Shown here one piece after another: positions 1-9,176 of a stretch of 64,000 bases of DNA. The stretch's first letter is position 1. Each line of letters begins with the position of its first letter. Position numbers and translations under genes: made by a program. The notes below the pieces were generated by a model. That model was given only the letters and a program-made list of their open reading frames with translations. It searched no databases and had not been told where the DNA came from. This DNA is from a virus. Where the stretch lies: the IMG/VR virus record IMGVR_UViG_3300028800_000005, positions 1-64,000 of that record. The stretch is one strand, 5' to 3'.

Positions 1-2
1 GC

Positions 3-155
3 GGCTGGGAGCATGAGGGCCAGGTCTACCTGGACGCTTCCCAGAAGGTTTCCCGGGCCAAGCAGGCGACGCGGCTAGGCAAGAACCGTAACCAGATCTC
101 CGTCTGGGACAACAAGAACATGAAGGAAATCCCCACGGGTGGTACCGGTGAGTGA
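3..155 (+). CDS. 3' end of hypothetical phage protein (partial, runs off window start)
   Basis: Open frame GWEHEGQVYLDASQK...NQISVWDNKNMKEIPTGGTGE*, with TGA at 153-155 overlapping the next gene. Confidence 0.7.
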   Translation, partial: GWEHEGQVYLDASQKVSRAKQATRLGKNRNQISVWDNKNMKEIPTGGTGE

Positions 156-531
156 GCGGTACAATCAGTGGCTGTCTGACCGTGGCGCGCAGGAGAACCT
201 TTCAAAGCCGCAGTTCTACCACGGCAGCGCGGACCACTTCGAGACCGGGGACACAATAGACCCGGGCAAGCCGTATGAGCGTGTCGGCCCCGAGTCCATG
301 CCAGGGCAGGCGTACTTCACCACGGACAAGGTCAGGGCTAGCTTCTACGCTGACCGGGCCTCAAAAAAGCGAGGGACCCCGCCCCGCGTCTACCAGGTCG
401 AACCGCAGGGTGATTACCGGCAGGACCGGATGACCAGGCGGTCCCCGGAGAACAAGGTGACGTCCTCGCCCCTGAAGGTAGTTGGCGAGGAGCCGCGCGT
501 AGACTGGCAGAAAACGCACCACGTGGTCTAG
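148..531 (+). CDS. Arr (rifampin ADP-ribosyltransferase)-like NAD+-dependent ADP-ribosyltransferase
   Basis: Motifs FYHGS..F..GD.I.PG, AYFTT, RVYQVEP.G..D and PLKVVGE match the Arr-type ART fold. GTG start at 148 overlaps the upstream stop. Confidence 0.7.
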   Translation: MSERYNQWLSDRGAQENLSKPQFYHGSADHFETGDTIDPGKPYERVGPESMPGQAYFTTDKVRASFYADRASKKRGTPPRVYQVEPQGDYRQDRMTRRSPENKVTSSPLKVVGEEPRVDWQKTHHVV

Positions 532-597
532 TCCGATTCGACAAGCCGGGCTGACTGGCATAACCTGAGTAAGTCACTACAGGGGAGGACAAGGCAC

Positions 598-2115
598 ATG
601 GCTACTGAGGCCGAGCGGAACAAGCAACTTCGCGAGTCACTGGTGAAGGCGCGGGAAATCATCCAGGAGCAGCAGAAGGCGCTGGATAACCTGATGCAGC
701 CACCGAACACCCTTGCGGTGTTCACCCGCTGGTTCAGTGAGACCGACCGGCTGGCTGTCGTGAATACCGGTGGCCGGGACATGCGCGTCCCGGTGGCTGA
801 GGAGCTGCTGCCGTTCGTCGGCCAGCGCGTCCTTATGTCACCCGAGGGTAATGCGGTTATCGGCCTTGACGAGTACCCGGTCCACGGAACCGTCGCCACG
901 TTCGACCATGTCCTGGAAGACGGCCGACTATACGTCACCACGAACATGGACACCGGGCTTGTCGTCACCAGGTCTAAGTCCTTGCAGGGCCAGGAGATAA
1001 AGTCGGGCTCCGTCCTTATGCTGGACGAGAAGTCCGGCATTGCCATTGACGTCATCGCCGGGCCGGACGAGACCCAAGACCTCATGCTGGAGGACGTCCC
1101 AGACGTATCGTATGAGGACATCGGCGGGCTGGACGAGCAGCTACAGCAGATCCACGACTCAATCGAATTGCCGTACCTGCACGCCGACCTCTTCAAGAAG
1201 TACCACCGCCGGGCCCCGAAGGGCATCCTCCTCTACGGTCCCCCCGGGTGCGGGAAAACCCTCGTCGCTAAGGCAGTGGCTAATAACCTCGCCAGGAAGT
1301 CCGGCCGGGACAAGGTGCACTTCCTGAACGTCAAGGGCCCCGAGCTTCTGAACAAGTGGGTCGGTGAGACCGAGCGGTCAATCCGGGATGTGTTCGCTAA
1401 GGCCCGGGAGCTTGGCTCCGAGGGTGACCCCGTGGTTATCTTCTTTGACGAGATGGAGTCAATGTTCCGCCAGCGCGGAGCGGGTATATCCAGTGACGTC
1501 GAATCGACTATCGTTCCTTCTCTCCTCGCGGAGATGGACGGAGTCGAGGGACTGCACAACGTTATCGTCATCGGAGCGTCGAACAGGCAGGATCTTATTG
1601 ACCCCGCTATCCTCCGACCTGGTCGCCTGGACGTTAAGATCATGGTCGGTCGGCCGGACAACAAGGCGGCCTACGCCATCCTGGAGAAGTACCTCACCGA
1701 CGACCTGCCGTACGCGGAGCCTATTTCTCTTGGCACGATCATCGACGAGATGTACGCCGAGACCAAGGCGACGGAGTTCCTGGAGGTCACCTACCAGAAT
1801 GGCCAGAAGGAAATACTCCACTTCAAGGACTTCTCCTCCGGCGCGATGATCGCATCGATTGTCGACCGCGCGAAGACCTCGGCTATCAAGGACGAGCTTG
1901 AGGGCAAGGCTGAGGGTATCACCCTGGCCCACCTTATCTCGGCAGTGGCCGACGAATTCAAGGAGAACGAAGACCTTCCGAACACGTCGAACCCCGACGA
2001 CTGGGCGAAGATCTCCGGCAGGAAGGGCGAGCGTATCGCGCACGTACGTCCCCTCCTGCGCGAGGAGGATGACAAGAAGGGCACCACTACTATCGACACG
2101 GGACAGTACCTATGA
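598..2115 (+). CDS. arc: Proteasome-associated AAA+ ATPase (ARC/Mpa family)
   Basis: N-terminal coiled coil ending QPP, OB-type interdomain, EDVPDVSYEDIGGL, Walker A GPPGCGKT, Walker B IFFDEME, SRH SNRQDLIDPAILRPGRLD, NEDLPNTSNPDDWAKISG, C-terminal GQYL. Confidence 0.95.
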   Translation: MATEAERNKQLRESLVKAREIIQEQQKALDNLMQPPNTLAVFTRWFSETDRLAVVNTGGRDMRVPVAEELLPFVGQRVLMSPEGNAVIGLDEYPVHGTVATFDHVLEDGRLYVTTNMDTGLVVTRSKSLQGQEIKSGSVLMLDEKSGIAIDVIAGPDETQDLMLEDVPDVSYEDIGGLDEQLQQIHDSIELPYLHADLFKKYHRRAPKGILLYGPPGCGKTLVAKAVANNLARKSGRDKVHFLNVKGPELLNKWVGETERSIRDVFAKARELGSEGDPVVIFFDEMESMFRQRGAGISSDVESTIVPSLLAEMDGVEGLHNVIVIGASNRQDLIDPAILRPGRLDVKIMVGRPDNKAAYAILEKYLTDDLPYAEPISLGTIIDEMYAETKATEFLEVTYQNGQKEILHFKDFSSGAMIASIVDRAKTSAIKDELEGKAEGITLAHLISAVADEFKENEDLPNTSNPDDWAKISGRKGERIAHVRPLLREEDDKKGTTTIDTGQYL

Positions 2116-2717
2116 TCTCCACGCCACCACCGCCACCGCCGCCAGCGTCTGTCACCACCAGTAACTGGGCCGGGTACGAATGGAAAGGTAACGACGTCGC
2201 TGCCGCCGAGTTCACCATCCCGAACTTCCCTTACAGCAGCATGAATTCCGCCGAGAAGGAAAACCACTCGGCCATGTCAATATGGACCGGACTTCGTGCG
2301 TACCCTTACATCGAGCAGATAGGTATCTACGACTACGTTTCAAATGGCAAGGTCGGATGGGCTGGCTTCTGTGCCTTCTGGCCGACGTCGAACGTTAGCT
2401 GCGGACACGGGATCTCTACCGGGGACAAGATGGCGGTTTCCGTCCACAGGTCCGGGCTGACTTACACGATGTCCATGCGCGACTACGGCCCGCACAACAC
2501 CTGGTCGGTCAGCATCAAGAAGACGCTAACCCACGCCGACAGCACGGCGGTTGTCATCGCGGAGGATTCAACCTACCCGCAGTACTCACCCGTGAACCTG
2601 ACACACTTCGATTCGTTCGTGGCCACCACGTCCGGTGACCCGGTGCTTGAGTATGAAAGCCCCTGGGGATACGCGGTGAAGACCTCAAGCAGGTCAGTTA
2701 CGATCGCGCACAAGTAA
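2112..2717 (+). CDS. G1 family glutamic peptidase (eqolisin/Peptidase_A4-like)
   Basis: TSNWAGY N-terminal motif, candidate catalytic Gln in IWTG...IEQIG, candidate catalytic Glu in TAVVIAED, preceded by a poly-Pro tract. Confidence 0.7.
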   Translation: MISTPPPPPPPASVTTSNWAGYEWKGNDVAAAEFTIPNFPYSSMNSAEKENHSAMSIWTGLRAYPYIEQIGIYDYVSNGKVGWAGFCAFWPTSNVSCGHGISTGDKMAVSVHRSGLTYTMSMRDYGPHNTWSVSIKKTLTHADSTAVVIAEDSTYPQYSPVNLTHFDSFVATTSGDPVLEYESPWGYAVKTSSRSVTIAHK

Positions 2718-2744
2718 CAATCCAGGCCCCGCAAAATATATCCT
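2717..2744 (+). promoter_or_regulatory. Putative late promoter ACAAT-N17-TATCCT upstream of terminase
   Basis: Same architecture recurs at 4410, 11013 and 17602. Confidence 0.55.
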
Positions 2745-2779
2745 GATTACGGACCCCCCTCCGGAATCGGGATATATTT
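2734..2779 (+). promoter_or_regulatory. 20-bp hairpin ending at -1 of terminase ATG
   Basis: AAATATATCCTGATTACGGA-cccccc-TCCGGAATCGGGATATATTT, with one mismatch and one G-U pair. Confidence 0.75.
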
Positions 2780-4399
2780 ATGGGCGCACTTGACGAAGAC
2801 TTTGAGCTAGATCAAAGCGGTGAGACCAAAGAGGAAAAGCAGCTCCGCGAGGAGACGCAGGTCATTGTCACCGCCGCCCAGCAGGCGCGGGTAAACCTTC
2901 TGGTCGACAAGCTCATGCTACTCACGGACGAGCTGTCCGGTAACCCCCTGCGTGAGTACCAGGTCCCTTTCGGCCGGAGGATATTCGAGTCCCTTATCAT
3001 CGGGGACGGTGCCCGTATCACGGCCCTGTTCTCTCGGCAGTCAGGCAAGACGGAGACGGTCGCTAACGTCATCGCTGTCGCCATGATCTTCCTTCCCCGG
3101 CTGGCCCAGGTCTACCCTGATTTCATGGCCCTCGGGAAGTTCAAGAAGGGGCTCTGGGTCGGTGCGTTCGCCCCGGTGGAGGACCAGGCGGACACGCTGT
3201 TCGGCCGTATCGTCGCGCGCCTCTCAAGCTCTGAAGCCGAAGAGTTCTACATGGACCCGGAGATTGACGACCGGATCGACGGGCACGGTAAGATCGCCAC
3301 CCTGAAGAAGTGCGGTTCGTTCGTTCGCCGGATGACCTGCCACCCGAAGGCGAAGATCGAGTCTAAGACCTACCACCTGATCCTTATCGACGAGGCGCAG
3401 GACTCGCACTCGAAGACGGTCAAGAAGTCGGTTAACCCGATGGGCGCGTCGACCCGCGCGACCCACGTCTGGACTGGCACGCCGACGTACACCAAGAACG
3501 TGTTCTACGACCAGATCCAGAAGAACAAGCGTAAGGCACTTCAGCGCGGTCGGAATAAGCAGAACCACTTCGAGGCTAACTGGCGTGAGGTCGCCCGTTG
3601 CTTCCCGACTTATAAGGCCTCGGTCGCTGACGACATGGAGACCATGGGCCGGGAGTCTGAGGAGTTCCTGCTCAGTTACGAGCTGAAGTGGCTGCTTGAC
3701 AAGGGCCAGTTCACTACCTCCGAGAAGTTCGAGGAGCTGGGAGATAACCGCGTCCAGGCCCTGGAGCACACCTGGTTCCGGACCCCGGTGGTCGCGGGAA
3801 TTGACTGCGGCCGGAAGCAGGACAAGACGATCGTCACGATCGTCTGGGTCGACTGGGACCACCCGGATGAATTCGGGTTCTTCGAGCACCGGGTCATTAA
3901 CTGGCTTGACCTTGAGGGAGTCGAATGGGAGGAGCAGTACTTCCAGATATACGACTTCCTGCAGGGATATAAAATCGAGGCTGTCGGAGTCGACATCGGC
4001 GGTATCGGTGACGTGGTAATAGGCCGGTTGAAGACGCTCATGCCGAACGTGAACTTCGTCGAGTGCGGGGACGCACCTGGTGAGCAGTCGGCCCGGTATA
4101 AGTGGCTCCAGCAACTGATGCAGCGCCGTCGTATTATCTGGCCAATGGGTGCTAAGGTTAAGAGACTGCGCGCATTCCGGAGGTTCCGTCAGGAGATGGA
4201 AGACGCCGAGATGGAGTACAAGGGCCATAACATGAAGGTCGCGGCCCCGGACGATAACGACGCGCACGACGACTACGTCGACTCCCTGTGCAACGCGGTG
4301 GCCATGACTATCCCGAAGCAGGATCAGAAGCAGGACGAGACGGTACGCGTCTATGACAATTTCATTTTTCGGCCCTCTCGCCGTGGTTGGCAACGGTAG
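2780..4399 (+). CDS. terL: Terminase large subunit
   Basis: Walker A SRQSGKT, Walker B ILIDEAQ, coupling motif TGTP, RNase H-like nuclease GIDCG...D and HDDYVDS. Confidence 0.93.
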   Translation: MGALDEDFELDQSGETKEEKQLREETQVIVTAAQQARVNLLVDKLMLLTDELSGNPLREYQVPFGRRIFESLIIGDGARITALFSRQSGKTETVANVIAVAMIFLPRLAQVYPDFMALGKFKKGLWVGAFAPVEDQADTLFGRIVARLSSSEAEEFYMDPEIDDRIDGHGKIATLKKCGSFVRRMTCHPKAKIESKTYHLILIDEAQDSHSKTVKKSVNPMGASTRATHVWTGTPTYTKNVFYDQIQKNKRKALQRGRNKQNHFEANWREVARCFPTYKASVADDMETMGRESEEFLLSYELKWLLDKGQFTTSEKFEELGDNRVQALEHTWFRTPVVAGIDCGRKQDKTIVTIVWVDWDHPDEFGFFEHRVINWLDLEGVEWEEQYFQIYDFLQGYKIEAVGVDIGGIGDVVIGRLKTLMPNVNFVECGDAPGEQSARYKWLQQLMQRRRIIWPMGAKVKRLRAFRRFRQEMEDAEMEYKGHNMKVAAPDDNDAHDDYVDSLCNAVAMTIPKQDQKQDETVRVYDNFIFRPSRRGWQR

Positions 4400-4409
4400 T
4401 AGATCACTA

Positions 4410-4437
4410 ACAGTTGTCGTACACCAAAAGGTAGGCT
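4410..4437 (+). promoter_or_regulatory. Putative promoter ACAGT-N17-TAGGCT; leaderless start of the EndoVII gene
   Basis: -10 hexamer ends 6 nt before ATG 4444, no SD present. Confidence 0.55.
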
Positions 4438-4443
4438 ACGGGT

Positions 4444-4983
4444 ATGGAAGAAAAACTCTGCCCAAAGTGCAAGCGCAAGCTACCCGTAGACAGGTTCTCG
4501 AAGGACAGCCGACGTAAGGATGGACATCAGCCGTACTGCAAAGACTGTAACAAGGTGTACTACGACGAGCACCACGATACTATACTTGCAGGTAGAGCGA
4601 AATACTACCGGGATACCCTATACGACAGGCTAACCTGGCAAGCCGAGTACCGGGCCGAACATCGACCATCCGCTATCGCCGCCGCGAGATTTTGCAATAA
4701 AGGAATTACAGCGGAGCGGTACCAGGAAATGTGGGATGAACAAGGCGGCTTGTGTGCCATCTGCAAGAAGCCGGAAACGGCAATGGTGCACGGGACCCTA
4801 AAGCAGCTAGCAGCAGACCATGATCACTCCTGCTGCCCTGGCAGAAAATCCTGCGGTAAGTGCTTTCGCAAGCTGCTATGCTCCCACTGCAACGTTGCCC
4901 TGGGAATGGTTCACGACGACATAGAGGTTCTGGAGAATATGATCGAATACTTGAAGACCTCAAAGCGAGCATGGTCGAGGTAA
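4444..4983 (+). CDS. Endonuclease VII-family (His-Me) free-standing endonuclease
   Basis: N-terminal CxxC...KDG...CxxC module; QGGLCAIC...DHDH...C.RKLLCSHCNVALG. Confidence 0.88.
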   Translation: MEEKLCPKCKRKLPVDRFSKDSRRKDGHQPYCKDCNKVYYDEHHDTILAGRAKYYRDTLYDRLTWQAEYRAEHRPSAIAAARFCNKGITAERYQEMWDEQGGLCAICKKPETAMVHGTLKQLAADHDHSCCPGRKSCGKCFRKLLCSHCNVALGMVHDDIEVLENMIEYLKTSKRAWSR

Positions 4984-4986
4984 TTC

Positions 4987-5589
4987 ATGAGTGGTGAGAC
5001 GGAGAACGCCGTAAGCGGCTGGACTACTGATACCCTTAAGTCGTACATGGAGGCACAGATAACCTCCCTGCGCTCTGCCCTGGACGAGCGTTACGCGACG
5101 CAGACTAAGGCGACGGACGCCGCGTTCGTTGCTCAGCAGACCGCTATGCGTACTGCGTTCGACGCGGCGGACAAAGCAGTCCAGGCCGCGCTTGCTGCGG
5201 CCGAGAAAGCAGCCAAGAAGGCAGAGGACGCAGCCGACAAGCGATTCGACGCGGTTAACGAATTCCGTGGTCAGCTCGCTGACCAGGCGGCGACACTCCT
5301 TTCCCGCGTGGAGTACCAGGCACAGCACACGTCGACCCTGGAGAAGATCGAGCTTATCAATTCCCGGCTAGCCGAGCTGGACAAGATGGTAGCTACGGGG
5401 GCCAGCAAGTCGGCCGGGGCGCAGTCCGTCACCGGTACGGGCTACGAGGCGTCAGTGTACAATCAGAACAACAGGCTCGCGACGGCTGCCCGTGCCAAGG
5501 TCACCATAAGCCAGCTCATCGCCGCCATGGCAATTGTCGCTGCTATCATCGGACCCGTCCTTATCGAGATCCTTAGCCACAGCCACTAA
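4987..5589 (+). CDS. Coiled-coil protein with C-terminal transmembrane helix
   Basis: Ala/Lys/Glu heptad-rich body, hydrophobic C-terminus LIAAMAIVAAIIGPVLI. Confidence 0.7.
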   Translation: MSGETENAVSGWTTDTLKSYMEAQITSLRSALDERYATQTKATDAAFVAQQTAMRTAFDAADKAVQAALAAAEKAAKKAEDAADKRFDAVNEFRGQLADQAATLLSRVEYQAQHTSTLEKIELINSRLAELDKMVATGASKSAGAQSVTGTGYEASVYNQNNRLATAARAKVTISQLIAAMAIVAAIIGPVLIEILSHSH

Positions 5590-5640
5590 CCGGCGGCCTG
5601 TTTCGCGGTAAACTGAATTGAGCGAGCGCGAGGAGTCCTA

Positions 5641-6537
5641 ATGACGATGCCAGGCCAGCCCTACCAGAATTCGTGGGACGACGGCGAGGGTGACGTCTAC
5701 GACCCGCAGCATAACCGGACGGATAACTTCCTTGCCGCGTGGTACACGCGCGGGTACACCGCCCACCTCGGCGCTAACGGGGAGATGGTCTACACCCCGC
5801 TTATCGCGTCGACCCCGGCGAACACGGACTACGCCTCCCTGCCTTCCGCGATCGGCACCTACACCGAGATCCACCAGCAGTACTTTAACCCGGACCATGA
5901 CCCGCTCGGCGGGTTCCTGACCTTCATGCCGAGCGACAGCTTCACGTACACGGCGGACGGGGTTTCCTACCGGGTCCCCCGGCGGCTGAGCGGGACGGAG
6001 ACGTGGCCTAGCCTGGACTCCGGTGTCTCCCCCTGGGCATTCTCCATGGAGGGCTCAGGCTGCATCTACATCTGGCTGGGCTTCCTTGTCGTTAAGCTGT
6101 TCCCGACAGACATCGATTCGATCGTCACTGACTCCGGGAACCCCCTGACGTACCACGTCATCGAGCATTTCCAGGAGGGGCGGGAATTCGACATTACCGT
6201 TCCGTCCTCGGACACGGCCCTGGACCTGACTGCTGACTGCATGATTGACGGCAGCATGAGGCCTTACCAGTTCGACCCCGTGAACCCGCTTGGGATGCTG
6301 GACGCCCTGGAGCTTCAGTCCGTCACGACTTCTTCCCCGCCCGCGACGGTGCGGACGTACCTGTTCCCGGCGGCTACGAACCTCTGGGTTGCCACGCATA
6401 ACTTCCCGTACCTTCCTTCCGTCACCTGTGTCGATGATACCGGGCACCTTATCGAGGGCACGGTCTCCTATCCGACTTCGACGACCGTCCATGTTGAATG
6501 GGCCTCGTCTGTCTCCGGGAAGATGGAGCTTCGTTAA
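5641..6537 (+). CDS. Putative virion structural/fibre-adaptor protein
   Basis: SD GAGGAG; C-terminal W..THN....PSV...D..G..I.G.V.Y domain typical of phage fibre-associated proteins. Confidence 0.6.
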
Positions 6538-9176
6538 TGGCTGAATTCCTGGACACCGTTAACTTCAACCATATTCCGGTAGAGGGGCTTGCCCCGTACG
6601 CGGGAGAGGACCCGCCTGACAGTCCCGCTGGCGGGGAAACGTGGTACCGCCCGTCGACCGGCGACCGGCTTTTCTGGGACGACCACATTAATACCTGGGT
6701 CGTAGGTAACCAGGGCCCGGCCGGAGCTACCGGCCCTACTGGGCCCCAGGGTCCGACTGGCCCGCAAGGTGTCCAGGGGTCCCAGGGGTCGACTGGTCCT
6801 CAGGGTCCTACCGGTGCAACCGGAGCTACCGGCGCTACGGGTCCCCAGGGACCGCAAGGTGACGCTGGCGCTACCGGGCCTGCTGGCCTAGAATGGCGCG
6901 GGGTATGGTCCAGTGCAACCAGCTACGTTCCTGATGACGTGGTGTTCTACAGCGGCTCCGCGTACTTCTGCCTGCTGGCGAATACGAACGTCAACCCGGT
7001 GGGCCACCCGACGACATGGGGGACCCTTGTAGCTGAGGGTGCTACCGGCCCGCAGGGGCCAACTGGCGCGACCGGGGACACTGGTCCTCAGGGTCCTACC
7101 GGGCCTACCGGTGCTACCGGCCCTACCGGGGCACAAGGCATCCAGGGGACCACGGGGGCAACCGGCAGCACTGGCGCTACTGGAGCGACGGGACCCCAGG
7201 GACCGACCGGGGCGACCGGCTCTACCGGCGCTGCGGGTAACACGCTCCTGTACGGCTCTGGAGCGCCCAGTAACGGCACTGGGGTTGACGGGAACTTCTA
7301 CCTGGATGATGTGACCTGGAAGATCTACGGGCCGCGTGCGTCCGGTGTGTGGCCGTCTGGGACGTCTATCATCGGGCCAACGGGAGCCACGGGTGCAACC
7401 GGGGCCACGGGCAGCCAGGGTATCCAGGGAATCCAGGGAGCTACCGGTGCGACCGGGGCACAAGGCATCCAGGGAATTCAGGGTGCGACCGGGGCGACTG
7501 GTGCTACTGGCCCGTCTGGGAATACTGTCGGGTCTGGCTCCGGGTCTCCGTCTAGTGGCACCGGAGTGCAGGGTGACTTCTACATCGACACCACGGCCTG
7601 GAACGTGTACGGCCCGAAGGGCAGCAGCACGTGGCCGTCCGGTGTGTCACTTATCGGGCCTCAGGGATCGACCGGCGCGACCGGTGCAAGCCCGGTCGTA
7701 GCCCCTGTCCTCGGTCGCCCGACTACGATCGGGTTCCTGAACGTGAACGGTACCACCGGAAACTTTGCCGTTACTGAGGCGACGCGCGCAGGCGAAGCCA
7801 TTATCGTTGAAATTCTGACGACCAGCTCCGCGACCATCGGCGTGTCAGATGACTCGGCTAGCGGTGGGAACACCTACACGCAGGTAGCTGCTGTAGCTGC
7901 CGGGACTTCTTACCTGTACGTATTCGTATCGAATACCGTTAACGCCCTGACGACCTCCAACCATATAACAGTTACGTCCTCGGGTAGCCAGGTGTACACC
8001 TTCGTCGCTTACTGGACTCCCGGTTACTGTGGTACAACGGATGCTACGGTGGCTACCGCCTCCGGAACTTCTAACGCCCCGTCCGTTTCCAGCGGGGCAA
8101 TGTCCGTAGCTAACGACCTTGAGTTCCTGTGTTACTTTAACAATGCCGGGACTAACCTGAATGCGGCTCCCTCAGGGTGGACCGCCCTGGGGACGAACTT
8201 TGACGGGACCTTGGTAGCGGCACCCTACTATAAGCAGGCGACTTCGCTTTCCTCCGACACGGCGACGGCGGGCTACGGCAGCTCAATAACCTGGTCGGCC
8301 GCGCTTGTCACACTGAAGCCGTATGTCCCCCGGGTACAGGTTTCGGCAATTAGCCAGGTGGCTGCCGACATACAGCCTTCCCCTGGGACACGGACGTCCG
8401 GAGCGTCCGGATACCTGGCTGATGCCTCACATATTCACGGGCAGCCGTCCGTGTTCGCCCCAACAGGACTTACCGGGGCGACAACCGCTACCCGCTACGT
8501 CGGGGGCACCGCGTCGGGGTCACCGGCATCGGGAACCTTCGTAACGGGTGACTGGATTGTCGACCAGACTGGAGTCAAGTGGGTCTGCACCGCAGGCGGG
8601 ACACCAGGAACATGGCGTTGTGATGCAGGGGTTAACGTAATGACGCACCCGATTACTGGAACCTTCCTGGAGAACGTGCCCTGGGCTCTCCTGTCGAACT
8701 CGATAACATGCGGGTCCGGGAACCTCTACCTATTTCCAGTTCCGCTACTACCAGGAATGGTTGTCACTAACCTGACCATGATTGCTAGCGGTGGCGGGGC
8801 AACATACACGAACCGCTGGGGCGGTATCTTTAAGTGGAATAGCGGGACACCGATGCAGGTCGCGCACACGGCCGACCAGTTGACAACTGCGGTGTCCTCT
8901 GGCACAGTTTACACGATTCCCCTTACCTCCGCTTATACCGTTCCCACTACCGCTGAATCGTACTTCGTCGGCTTCTGCCAGGTAGGGTCGGCCCTTTCTA
9001 CCTGGTTCGGAAGTTCTAGCTGGGGTGGTAACGGGACGAGTCTGGGGGGCGTAACTGCCCTGCAGAAATTCCTTCCAGGGTACAAGAGCAGTGTCACCGG
9101 CCCGGGTACAGACGGATCAACGACAGACGCTATAGGCGCGTACATTACGGGGCAGCCGTACATAGCGCTCAGTTAG
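6537..9176 (+). CDS. Collagen-like fibre protein with CBM5/12-like module
   Basis: Several Gly-X-Y tracts (GPTGATG); [20 protein letters not shown] module; ATG 6537 overlaps upstream TAA, so preferred over 6498. Confidence 0.85.

Follow-up and report, generated by a model that had tools for sequence, protein, structure and literature searches.

A phage-encoded ARC/Mpa-family ATPase that may act with the 20S proteasome of its host

Why would a bacteriophage carry the ATPase of a proteasome that it does not itself encode? The Pup-proteasome system of Actinobacteria is regarded as a stress and virulence pathway that is purely cellular. The question is raised by the gene arc, at positions 598 to 2,115 of a 64,000-nt stretch of viral DNA (the window, in what follows), which is the first 64 kb of the 112,017-bp IMG/VR record IMGVR_UViG_3300028800_000005. 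The gene encodes a 505-aa protein (P0001) of the ARC/Mpa family of proteasomal ATPases, and no report of a phage-encoded ARC was found in the full-text literature searched. The reading we prefer, which we place slightly on the probable side of even, is that P0001 is an active unfoldase that docks on the 20S core particle of the host and probably still reads the host's Pup. The gene and the domains on which its assignment is based are the following.

598..2115, plus strand: arc, encoding P0001, a 505-aa ARC/Mpa-family proteasome ATPase (TIGR03689; match to Mpa 7px9; ratio of nonsynonymous to synonymous substitution rates, dN/dS)
582..589, plus strand: Shine-Dalgarno sequence GGGGAGGA, 8 nt before the ATG at 598 (direct sequence reading)
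709..888, plus strand: OB domain 1, residues 38-97 (PF17758, of the Prot_ATP_ID_OB_N/C pair, 32.8 bits)
892..1056, plus strand: OB domain 2, residues 99-153 (PF16450, 44.6 bits)
1225..1650, plus strand: AAA module, residues 210-351 (PF00004, 131.8 bits; motifs invariant in the phage clade)

Is P0001 a genuine ARC? The reading frame of arc is open and starts at the first ATG past an in-frame stop; because the upstream gene stops at 531, a longer ARC N-terminus is ruled out and the short one is real. Against the TIGR03689 pup_AAA equivalog model, P0001 scores 625.9 bits with a cut-off of 504.75 (627.1 bits for arc in a six-frame search), and with the next-best models (PAN, Cdc48, FtsH) it stays far under their cut-offs. 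Its Pfam matches are Prot_ATP_ID_OB_N, Prot_ATP_ID_OB_C and AAA, both OB matches being above cut-off, and its top match in the PDB is Mpa of Mycobacterium tuberculosis (7px9, E 7.5e-145), aligned from Mpa residue 67 on. The motor motifs are Walker A at G214-T221 (GPPGCGKT), Walker B at D284/E285 (FFDEME), a pore loop of the Ar-Hb-Gly (aromatic-hydrophobic-glycine) type at K253-W-V-G256 (KWVG), sensor-1 at N329 (GASN) and Arg fingers at R340/R343 (RPGR). An AlphaFold2 (AF2) monomer model shows a single helix at the N-terminus (residues 4-32), then two domains rich in beta-strands and the AAA fold, followed by a hairpin and a disordered tail (488-505); with a mean predicted local distance difference test score (pLDDT) of 68.6 and a 13-row alignment it is of modest quality and was used for secondary structure only. 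P0001 is a full member of the ARC/Mpa family. The initial annotation, made from the letters of the window, had described a full-length ARC with a coiled-coil segment, both Walker motifs, an Arg finger and a terminal GQYL, and each of these was located in the protein.

Is arc a gene of the phage? The record carries 108-bp exact terminal repeats and is rated 100% complete, and genes for terminase, endonuclease VII, portal and major head protein lie within 17 kb after arc. The terminase gene starts 665 nt past the ARC stop, in agreement with the 0.7 kb given by the initial annotation.

2780..4399, plus strand: large terminase subunit (PF17289, phrog_2)

Throughout the phage lineage this gene bounds the arc locus on the right as a conserved anchor, and 7 other viral contigs from other metagenomes show the same succession of arc, a variable gene and terminase. 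In them ARC identity is 85, 85, 85, 85, 66, 58 and 52% and terminase identity 88-90, 61, 59 and 55%. Since ARC and terminase diverged together, vertical inheritance in the phage lineage is indicated. The base composition of arc (GC 0.601; GC at third codon positions, GC3, 0.796) is within the range of the genes of the genome (0.609 +/- 0.030 and 0.758 +/- 0.064), and cellular arc genes, with GC3 of 0.92-0.94, are far from it. Exact contigs from rhizosphere metagenomes in Logan span the upstream neighbour g001 and arc, as well as arc, g003 and the terminase, at even depth; where the AAA part is covered more deeply, the surplus stems from other organisms' cellular arc genes.

That very accumulation of cellular ARC reads on the conserved AAA part in metagenomes, together with the position of arc only 598 nt from the contig start, is what could be said for an artefact, whether through wrong assembly of host DNA onto a phage contig or through the recent capture of a gene without function. 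We assign this a negligible probability given the terminal repeats of a complete record, the synteny in seven other contigs, the junction-spanning contigs, the composition, and a phage ARC clade that is monophyletic and lies outside the cellular ARCs. Chimerism with host DNA, which the initial annotation had itself named as the finding that would overturn its proposal, is rejected by the repeats, the synteny, the bridging contigs and the composition. We conclude that arc is a genuine phage gene and not host contamination.

Where does the gene come from? Its relatives in protein databases are short metagenomic proteins of 503-523 aa at 55-85% identity, one of them on a 112,412-bp and one on a 109,841-bp contig, followed by cellular ARCs (~588 aa) at 48-53% identity with no taxon prominent. 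A megablast search of positions 1-6000 against deposited phages gave no match. Phylogeny against the host ARC had been proposed as a check alongside the initial annotation. In our maximum-likelihood tree (LG+C20, quick search, supports from the Shimodaira-Hasegawa approximate likelihood-ratio test, SH-aLRT) the window ARC and eight short proteins form one clade with a support of 97, which joins L010 and one representative in a larger clade with a weak support of 74. All sampled cellular ARCs fall into a separate group of moderate support (SH-aLRT 89), and both phage clades lie outside it. Judged by this quick tree, the acquisition of arc is old or the gene is fast-evolving, and no donor can be named.

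Two phage-like IMG/VR contigs of other lineages also carry an ARC. The one in L011 (7917-9512) scores 616.6 bits and ends in GQYL, on a contig with SbcCD-like and Asp/Arg-hydroxylase genes; the one in L012 (3752-4978) is cut at the contig end, on a contig with a T4-type RNase H. Given these two, phages may have captured ARC more than once. Among 50,697 deposited phage genomes the sole full-length ARC match was MT835496.1 (L152, deposited as 'UNVERIFIED Bacteriophage sp.' from human faeces). We do not count it as a phage ARC, because its genes are arranged as arc-dop-pafA in the bacterial manner, the arc carries a frameshift and GQYL is missing. The three genes lie at 40.4-45.0 kb of 159 kb with no proteasome genes, and the sequence is probably a contig of a proteasome-less actinobacterium. 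The 'proteasome-associated ATPase' of Brevundimonas phages matches in the AAA module only, at 34% identity, and is not an ARC. No PHROG family spans the ARC architecture, the matches there being confined to the AAA module.

Has the phage kept the motor in working order? Walker A and B, the KWVG pore loop, sensor-1 and the Arg fingers show no variation across the aligned phage clade. In a comparison with an 85% relative, dN/dS is 0.15 for the whole of arc (0.08 for the terminase) and 0.09-0.19 per domain, coil and tail included, with the lowest value, 0.09, in the AAA domain and 0.12 in the tail. On these alignments, the motor motifs of arc are held by purifying selection. The result bears on one alternative, in which P0001 would be a decoy or inhibitor that blocks the alpha-ring pockets of the 20S, sequesters pupylated proteins or poisons host ARC rings, shielding phage proteins. 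A review of lysine deserts (PMC13696103) puts forward pupylation as a possible pressure acting on the proteins of actinophages, and 52% identity to cellular ARCs leaves room for mixed rings. Mere occlusion would not call for a motor. Walker B, the pore loops and the Arg fingers nevertheless show no variation, and no domain has a lower dN/dS than AAA; we regard a decoy as highly improbable.

Could the protein engage a 20S core? Cellular Mpa does so through two elements. Its terminal GQYL inserts in pockets of the 20S alpha-ring (PMC8755798, PMC9599533), and its hairpin loop 501-ANGDK-505 contacts the H0 helices of the 20S, the substitutions N502A and K505A impairing degradation in vivo (PMC8755798, PMC9599533). 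Both elements have counterparts in P0001.

1774..1821, plus strand: beta-hairpin, strands 393-399 and 404-408 (alignment, AF2 model, role of Mpa N502/K505 from PMC9599533)
2059..2112, plus strand: flexible C-terminal tail, residues 488-505, ending in GQYL at 2101-2112 (translation, pLDDT <50, clade comparison)

The hairpin loop reads QNGQK at residues 400-404, with N401 and K404 corresponding to Mpa N502 and K505, and the pattern [N/D]-G-x-[K/R] is kept across the whole phage clade. GQYL forms residues 502-505, and the C-termini of the clade are GQYL, GMYL, KQYL or RQYL, that is, always x[Q/M]YL, while the remaining tail varies. Both motifs persist in the clade through ~45% sequence divergence.

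Does a docking tail tell of a 20S? As a control we compared ARC tails with proteasome presence in Actinomycetota genomes, in one set of 101 and in a single-order set of 31. ARC was present in 54/101 and proteasome genes in 52/101 genomes of the former; in the single order the counts were 30/31 and 28/31. (These tallies take in the unpublished genomes G008, G025, G055, G075, G095, G108, G111, G117 and G119, none of which supplied sequence or bears on the tail results.) The C-termini of 39 ARCs were compared, 36 from proteasome-encoding genomes and three from genomes with no proteasome match. All 36 of the former end in GQYL and none of the three latter, whose ends are unrelated. The three (G029, G088 and G127, with ARCs L154, L155 and L191 above the family cut-off) are genomes of 1.7 Mb each from one order, in which their order-mates retain both GQYL and proteasome; they probably represent one lineage and one evolutionary event. 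GQYL is likewise missing from the ARC of MT835496, whose arc-dop-pafA locus has no proteasome genes. Because GQYL is absent from the ARCs of the proteasome-less genomes and from MT835496, and also, together with the hairpin motif, from two distant ARC-like phage proteins accompanied by Pup-like mini-proteins (L014 and L015), the tail appears to decay when no 20S is available, and its retention in the phage is our main argument for docking on a host 20S, which we consider probable from these sequence features.

The same comparison weighs on the possibility that P0001 works independently of the proteasome, unfolding or taking apart host or phage proteins that it does not deliver to a protease. 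This would resemble what has been proposed for the ARC of Corynebacterium, where pupylated ferritin is disassembled without degradation. ARCs function without a 20S in proteasome-less actinobacteria (review, PMC8223512), other phage lineages have tail-less ARC-like motors, and no protease occupies a conserved position beside arc. The sampled proteasome-less ARCs have nevertheless lost GQYL (0/3, and MT835496), whereas the phage clade retains x[Q/M]YL and N-G-x-K, with a dN/dS of 0.12 in the tail. By analogy with the cellular cases, such an independent role would be quite unlikely here.

Does the phage bring partners of its own? Six-frame hidden Markov model searches of the whole 112,017-bp genome for Pup (PF05639), the Pup ligase and deamidase PafA/Dop (PF03136) and the proteasome (PF00227) gave no match at E<=10. 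The absence of pup, pafA, dop and prcAB that the initial annotation had noted in the window is thereby confirmed, and the search of the rest of the genome that it had proposed came back empty too. Inspection of small open reading frames ending in GGQ, GGE or Cys clusters across the whole genome yielded nothing Pup-like and no Cys-tailed acidic mini-protein. A 130-aa protein at 90992-91384 (plus strand, outside the window) ends in GGQ like unprocessed Pup; we rejected it as it has no Pup-like acidic helix, and its ending is probably due to chance. The conserved genomic association of arc with dop, pup, prcBA and pafA is absent from the phage; it is a feature of context and not of the protein. 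With none of these genes in the phage genome, the partners would have to be those of the host.

Can the protein still recognise Pup? The N-terminal helix is where P0001 departs most visibly from cellular ARCs.

607..693, plus strand: N-terminal coiled-coil helix, residues 4-32, corresponding to about Mpa 66-94 (AF2 secondary structure, alignments)

The coil, with RNKQLRESLVKAR at residues 7-19, is a single helix of ~30 residues, compared with ~50-70 helical residues before the Pro-Pro hinge in cellular ARCs; members of the phage clade are without ~60 N-terminal residues of the latter, namely the disordered stretch and the coil's distal half. The helix is followed by the hinge Q34-P35-P36 and retains the heptad pattern, and N8, L11, L15, A18-R19, I22, L32 and QPP match cellular ARCs. 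Core position 25 (Mpa L87) is Gln for Leu in every member of the phage clade and is among the 13 fixed differences that separate the clade from cellular ARCs in the alignment. The coil also has the highest dN of the ARC domains (0.35), and the N-terminal 100 aa alone gave no sequence match in the PDB. The coil had been described at the outset as shortened and diverged, which is what we find.

Pup binds antiparallel as a 30-residue helix, with its residue 22 at the pore entrance (PMC8755798). By geometry, the residual coil would be just long enough for this helix. When two copies of ARC 1-100 were modelled together with the Pup of Streptomyces coelicolor (PUP_STRCO), the prediction supported a complex weakly, scoring 0.39 compared with 0.01 for the best of 3 controls, a pass that may be a memory of the solved Mpa-Pup complex; its runs agreed in at least 73% of contacts, with a partner pLDDT of at least 54. 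In the calibration of the mark that it passed, 58/80 solved complexes and 2/110 mismatched pairs reached that mark, and scores of <=0.60 comprised only 7/80 solved complexes and both passing mismatches. We place Pup recognition by P0001 at even chances.

A coil so altered could instead have been retargeted. In that case P0001 would dock on the 20S, and its truncated, Gln-bearing coil would no longer read Pup but a phage adaptor or degron, or host proteins directly. The ~60 missing residues, the clade-invariant change at position 25, the high dN of the coil and the 13 fixed differences all point that way. Moreover, phages with tail-less ARC-like proteins have Pup-like mini-proteins of their own, so that receptor and tag can co-evolve in phages. 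Speaking against it, the genome holds no Pup-like or Cys-tailed mini-protein, the variable slot next to arc offers no constant partner, and the coil keeps its heptads, several residues of cellular ARCs and a (weakly) predicted Pup complex. We judge retargeting unlikely. The initial suggestion that the coil could shift substrate choice may stand in part: the clade-wide Leu-to-Gln change in the core makes a shift possible, while a loss of Pup recognition is not indicated for a coil of Pup-helix length whose predicted Pup complex is weakly supported.

Which host would supply the proteasome? The closest cultured phages by terminase are the Streptomyces phages BRock, GiJojo, LuckySocke, Alone3 and pSt2308 (49% identity, genomes of 112-116 kb). 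A Streptomyces-like host is favoured because these relatives infect Streptomyces, the phage DNA occurs in rhizosphere metagenomes and a Streptomyces genome (G005) encodes both ARC and proteasome; the host is probably actinobacterial and Streptomyces-like.

How, then, would the protein work? Our preferred reading is that the phage, while infecting an actinobacterial host, would produce an active, hexameric unfoldase of the ARC/Mpa type. GQYL and the hairpin loop would dock it onto the host 20S, and its ATP-driven pore loops would thread proteins into the core. Substrates would be captured by the residual 30-residue coil, most probably through host Pup, since neither a tag nor a ligase nor a protease is encoded by the phage. 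Its ARC could in this way add to or replace the proteasomal ATPase of the host. Use of the host proteasome is the most economical reading because the 20S-contact elements and motor motifs are kept and pup, pafA, dop and prcAB are all missing from the phage. The initial annotation had likewise proposed that the phage supplies its own unfoldase to redirect the host proteasome. Phage origin, family membership, 20S-contact elements and selection bear out the premises of that proposal, and its docking step remains inferred. How the phage might profit, through greater degradation capacity, a supply of amino acids or the removal of particular host proteins, is conjecture; the purposes that the initial annotation suggested (destroying defence proteins, recycling amino acids) and its mixed hexamers with the host ATPase are likewise pure speculation. 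A bolder version, in which phages of proteasome-bearing actinobacteria commandeer the host 20S with an ATPase of their own and the short Gln-bearing coil retargets degradation to host defence or regulatory proteins, is a tentative possibility that we hold to be doubtful.

Several observations weigh against host-proteasome use with Pup as the tag. The cultured relative GiJojo does without ARC (its complete genome has no ARC match, and the genes upstream of its terminase are unrelated), so that the function would be accessory. The tail of P0001, counted as the 18 residues that follow its last strand, is short even in comparison with cellular ARCs, lying at the lower end of their tail lengths. 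Even cognate Mpa-20S binding is very weak in vitro (PMC9599533). As the three tail-less genomes are probably one event, the link between tail and 20S rests on ~2 independent losses. The presence of a 20S in the host is inferred only from the hosts of related phages and from the tail itself. On the side of Pup, the predicted complex lends weak support, and the loss of ~60 residues together with the change of L87 to Gln could weaken or alter binding.

What else surrounds the gene? Its immediate neighbours are as follows.

139..531, plus strand: Arr-like ADP-ribosyltransferase-domain protein, the upstream neighbour g001 (PF12120, 33.9 bits)
2112..2717, plus strand: Peptidase_A4 (G1 glutamic peptidase)-like protein of 201 aa, the downstream neighbour (PF01828, 46.6 bits)

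Only the 85% relatives share the Arr-like gene in its place upstream of arc, and they have an extra tandem copy. The family (rifampin ADP-ribosyltransferase domain) is multi-copy in the phage, with paralogs beyond the window at 85729-86719 and 105848-106866. The start of the Peptidase_A4-like gene overlaps the arc stop (ATGA). Its product has an N-terminal Pro7 tract, the motif SNWAGY and candidate catalytic Gln (IEQIG) and Glu (VIAED) residues, and gave no match in PHROG or the PDB. We considered it as an obligate ARC partner and rejected it: in every relative examined the slot carries unrelated genes (two small open reading frames, an HNH-like protein, a 252-aa protein or glycosyltransferase-like genes). 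Elsewhere in the window, a protein of 892 aa (6498-9176, plus strand) contains collagen triple-helix repeats and matches CBM_5_12 weakly; it is probably a tail fibre, with 39% identity to its counterpart in L013. The window holds no tRNAs.

Why would such a protein matter? A conserved, selected and tailed phage ARC implies a part for the host 20S in infection, as a resource or as a target. Should the bolder version hold, this would be the first bacterial virus to commandeer a proteasome, and phage ARC-like motors would comprise two mechanistically distinct branches, the tailed one and the tail-less one that depends on mini-Pups. It becomes directly testable whether the Pup-proteasome system of the host shapes actinophages, as is currently hypothesised. 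With its 30-residue coil and short loops, the protein is also a naturally minimal ARC in which Pup recognition and 20S docking can be studied, and tailed and tail-less phage motors provide a built-in comparison for the purpose of the docking tail.

How does P0001 compare with known systems? The BRock-like Streptomyces phages share the genome size of the window phage and a terminase at 49% identity, and differ in that GiJojo gave no ARC match. Closer in kind are the tail-less ARC-like proteins of two complete phage genomes, L014 (182 kb) and L015 (58 kb), which score 312 and 267 bits, under the TIGR03689 cut-off. They are likewise phage-borne and share the coiled coil-OB-AAA arrangement, the Trp pore loop and the coil Gln, but have neither GQYL nor the hairpin motif; the window protein has both and passes the cut-off. 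Their ARC-like genes are followed directly by Pup-like acidic mini-proteins ending in the Cys clusters WCTPCE and PPCCCC, and in L014 also by a small membrane protein; neither kind of gene follows arc in the window or is present elsewhere in its genome.

L014, 9311-9517 and 9496-9915: genes after the ARC-like gene
L015, 9650-9895 and 9892-10119: genes after the ARC-like gene

Archaeal PAN and eukaryotic Rpt1-6 resemble P0001 in the coiled coil, OB ring, AAA motor and C-terminal docking motif with a penultimate Tyr; they differ in having a single OB domain and no beta-grasp, and PAN models score the phage protein at 219 bits against a cut-off of 500. The nearest system remains cellular ARC/Mpa (TIGR03689; Mpa structures 7px9, 5kwa and 5kzf), with ~50% full-length identity and the same succession of coiled coil, double OB, AAA, beta-grasp with the N-G-x-K hairpin, flexible tail and GQYL. 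The phage gene differs in adjoining a terminase instead of lying in an arc-dop-pup-prcBA-pafA locus, and its product in the Trp as pore-loop aromatic, the shorter loops, the Gln in the coil core and ~60 fewer N-terminal residues. The phage ARC belongs to a known family, of which it is a trimmed form found in a new setting.

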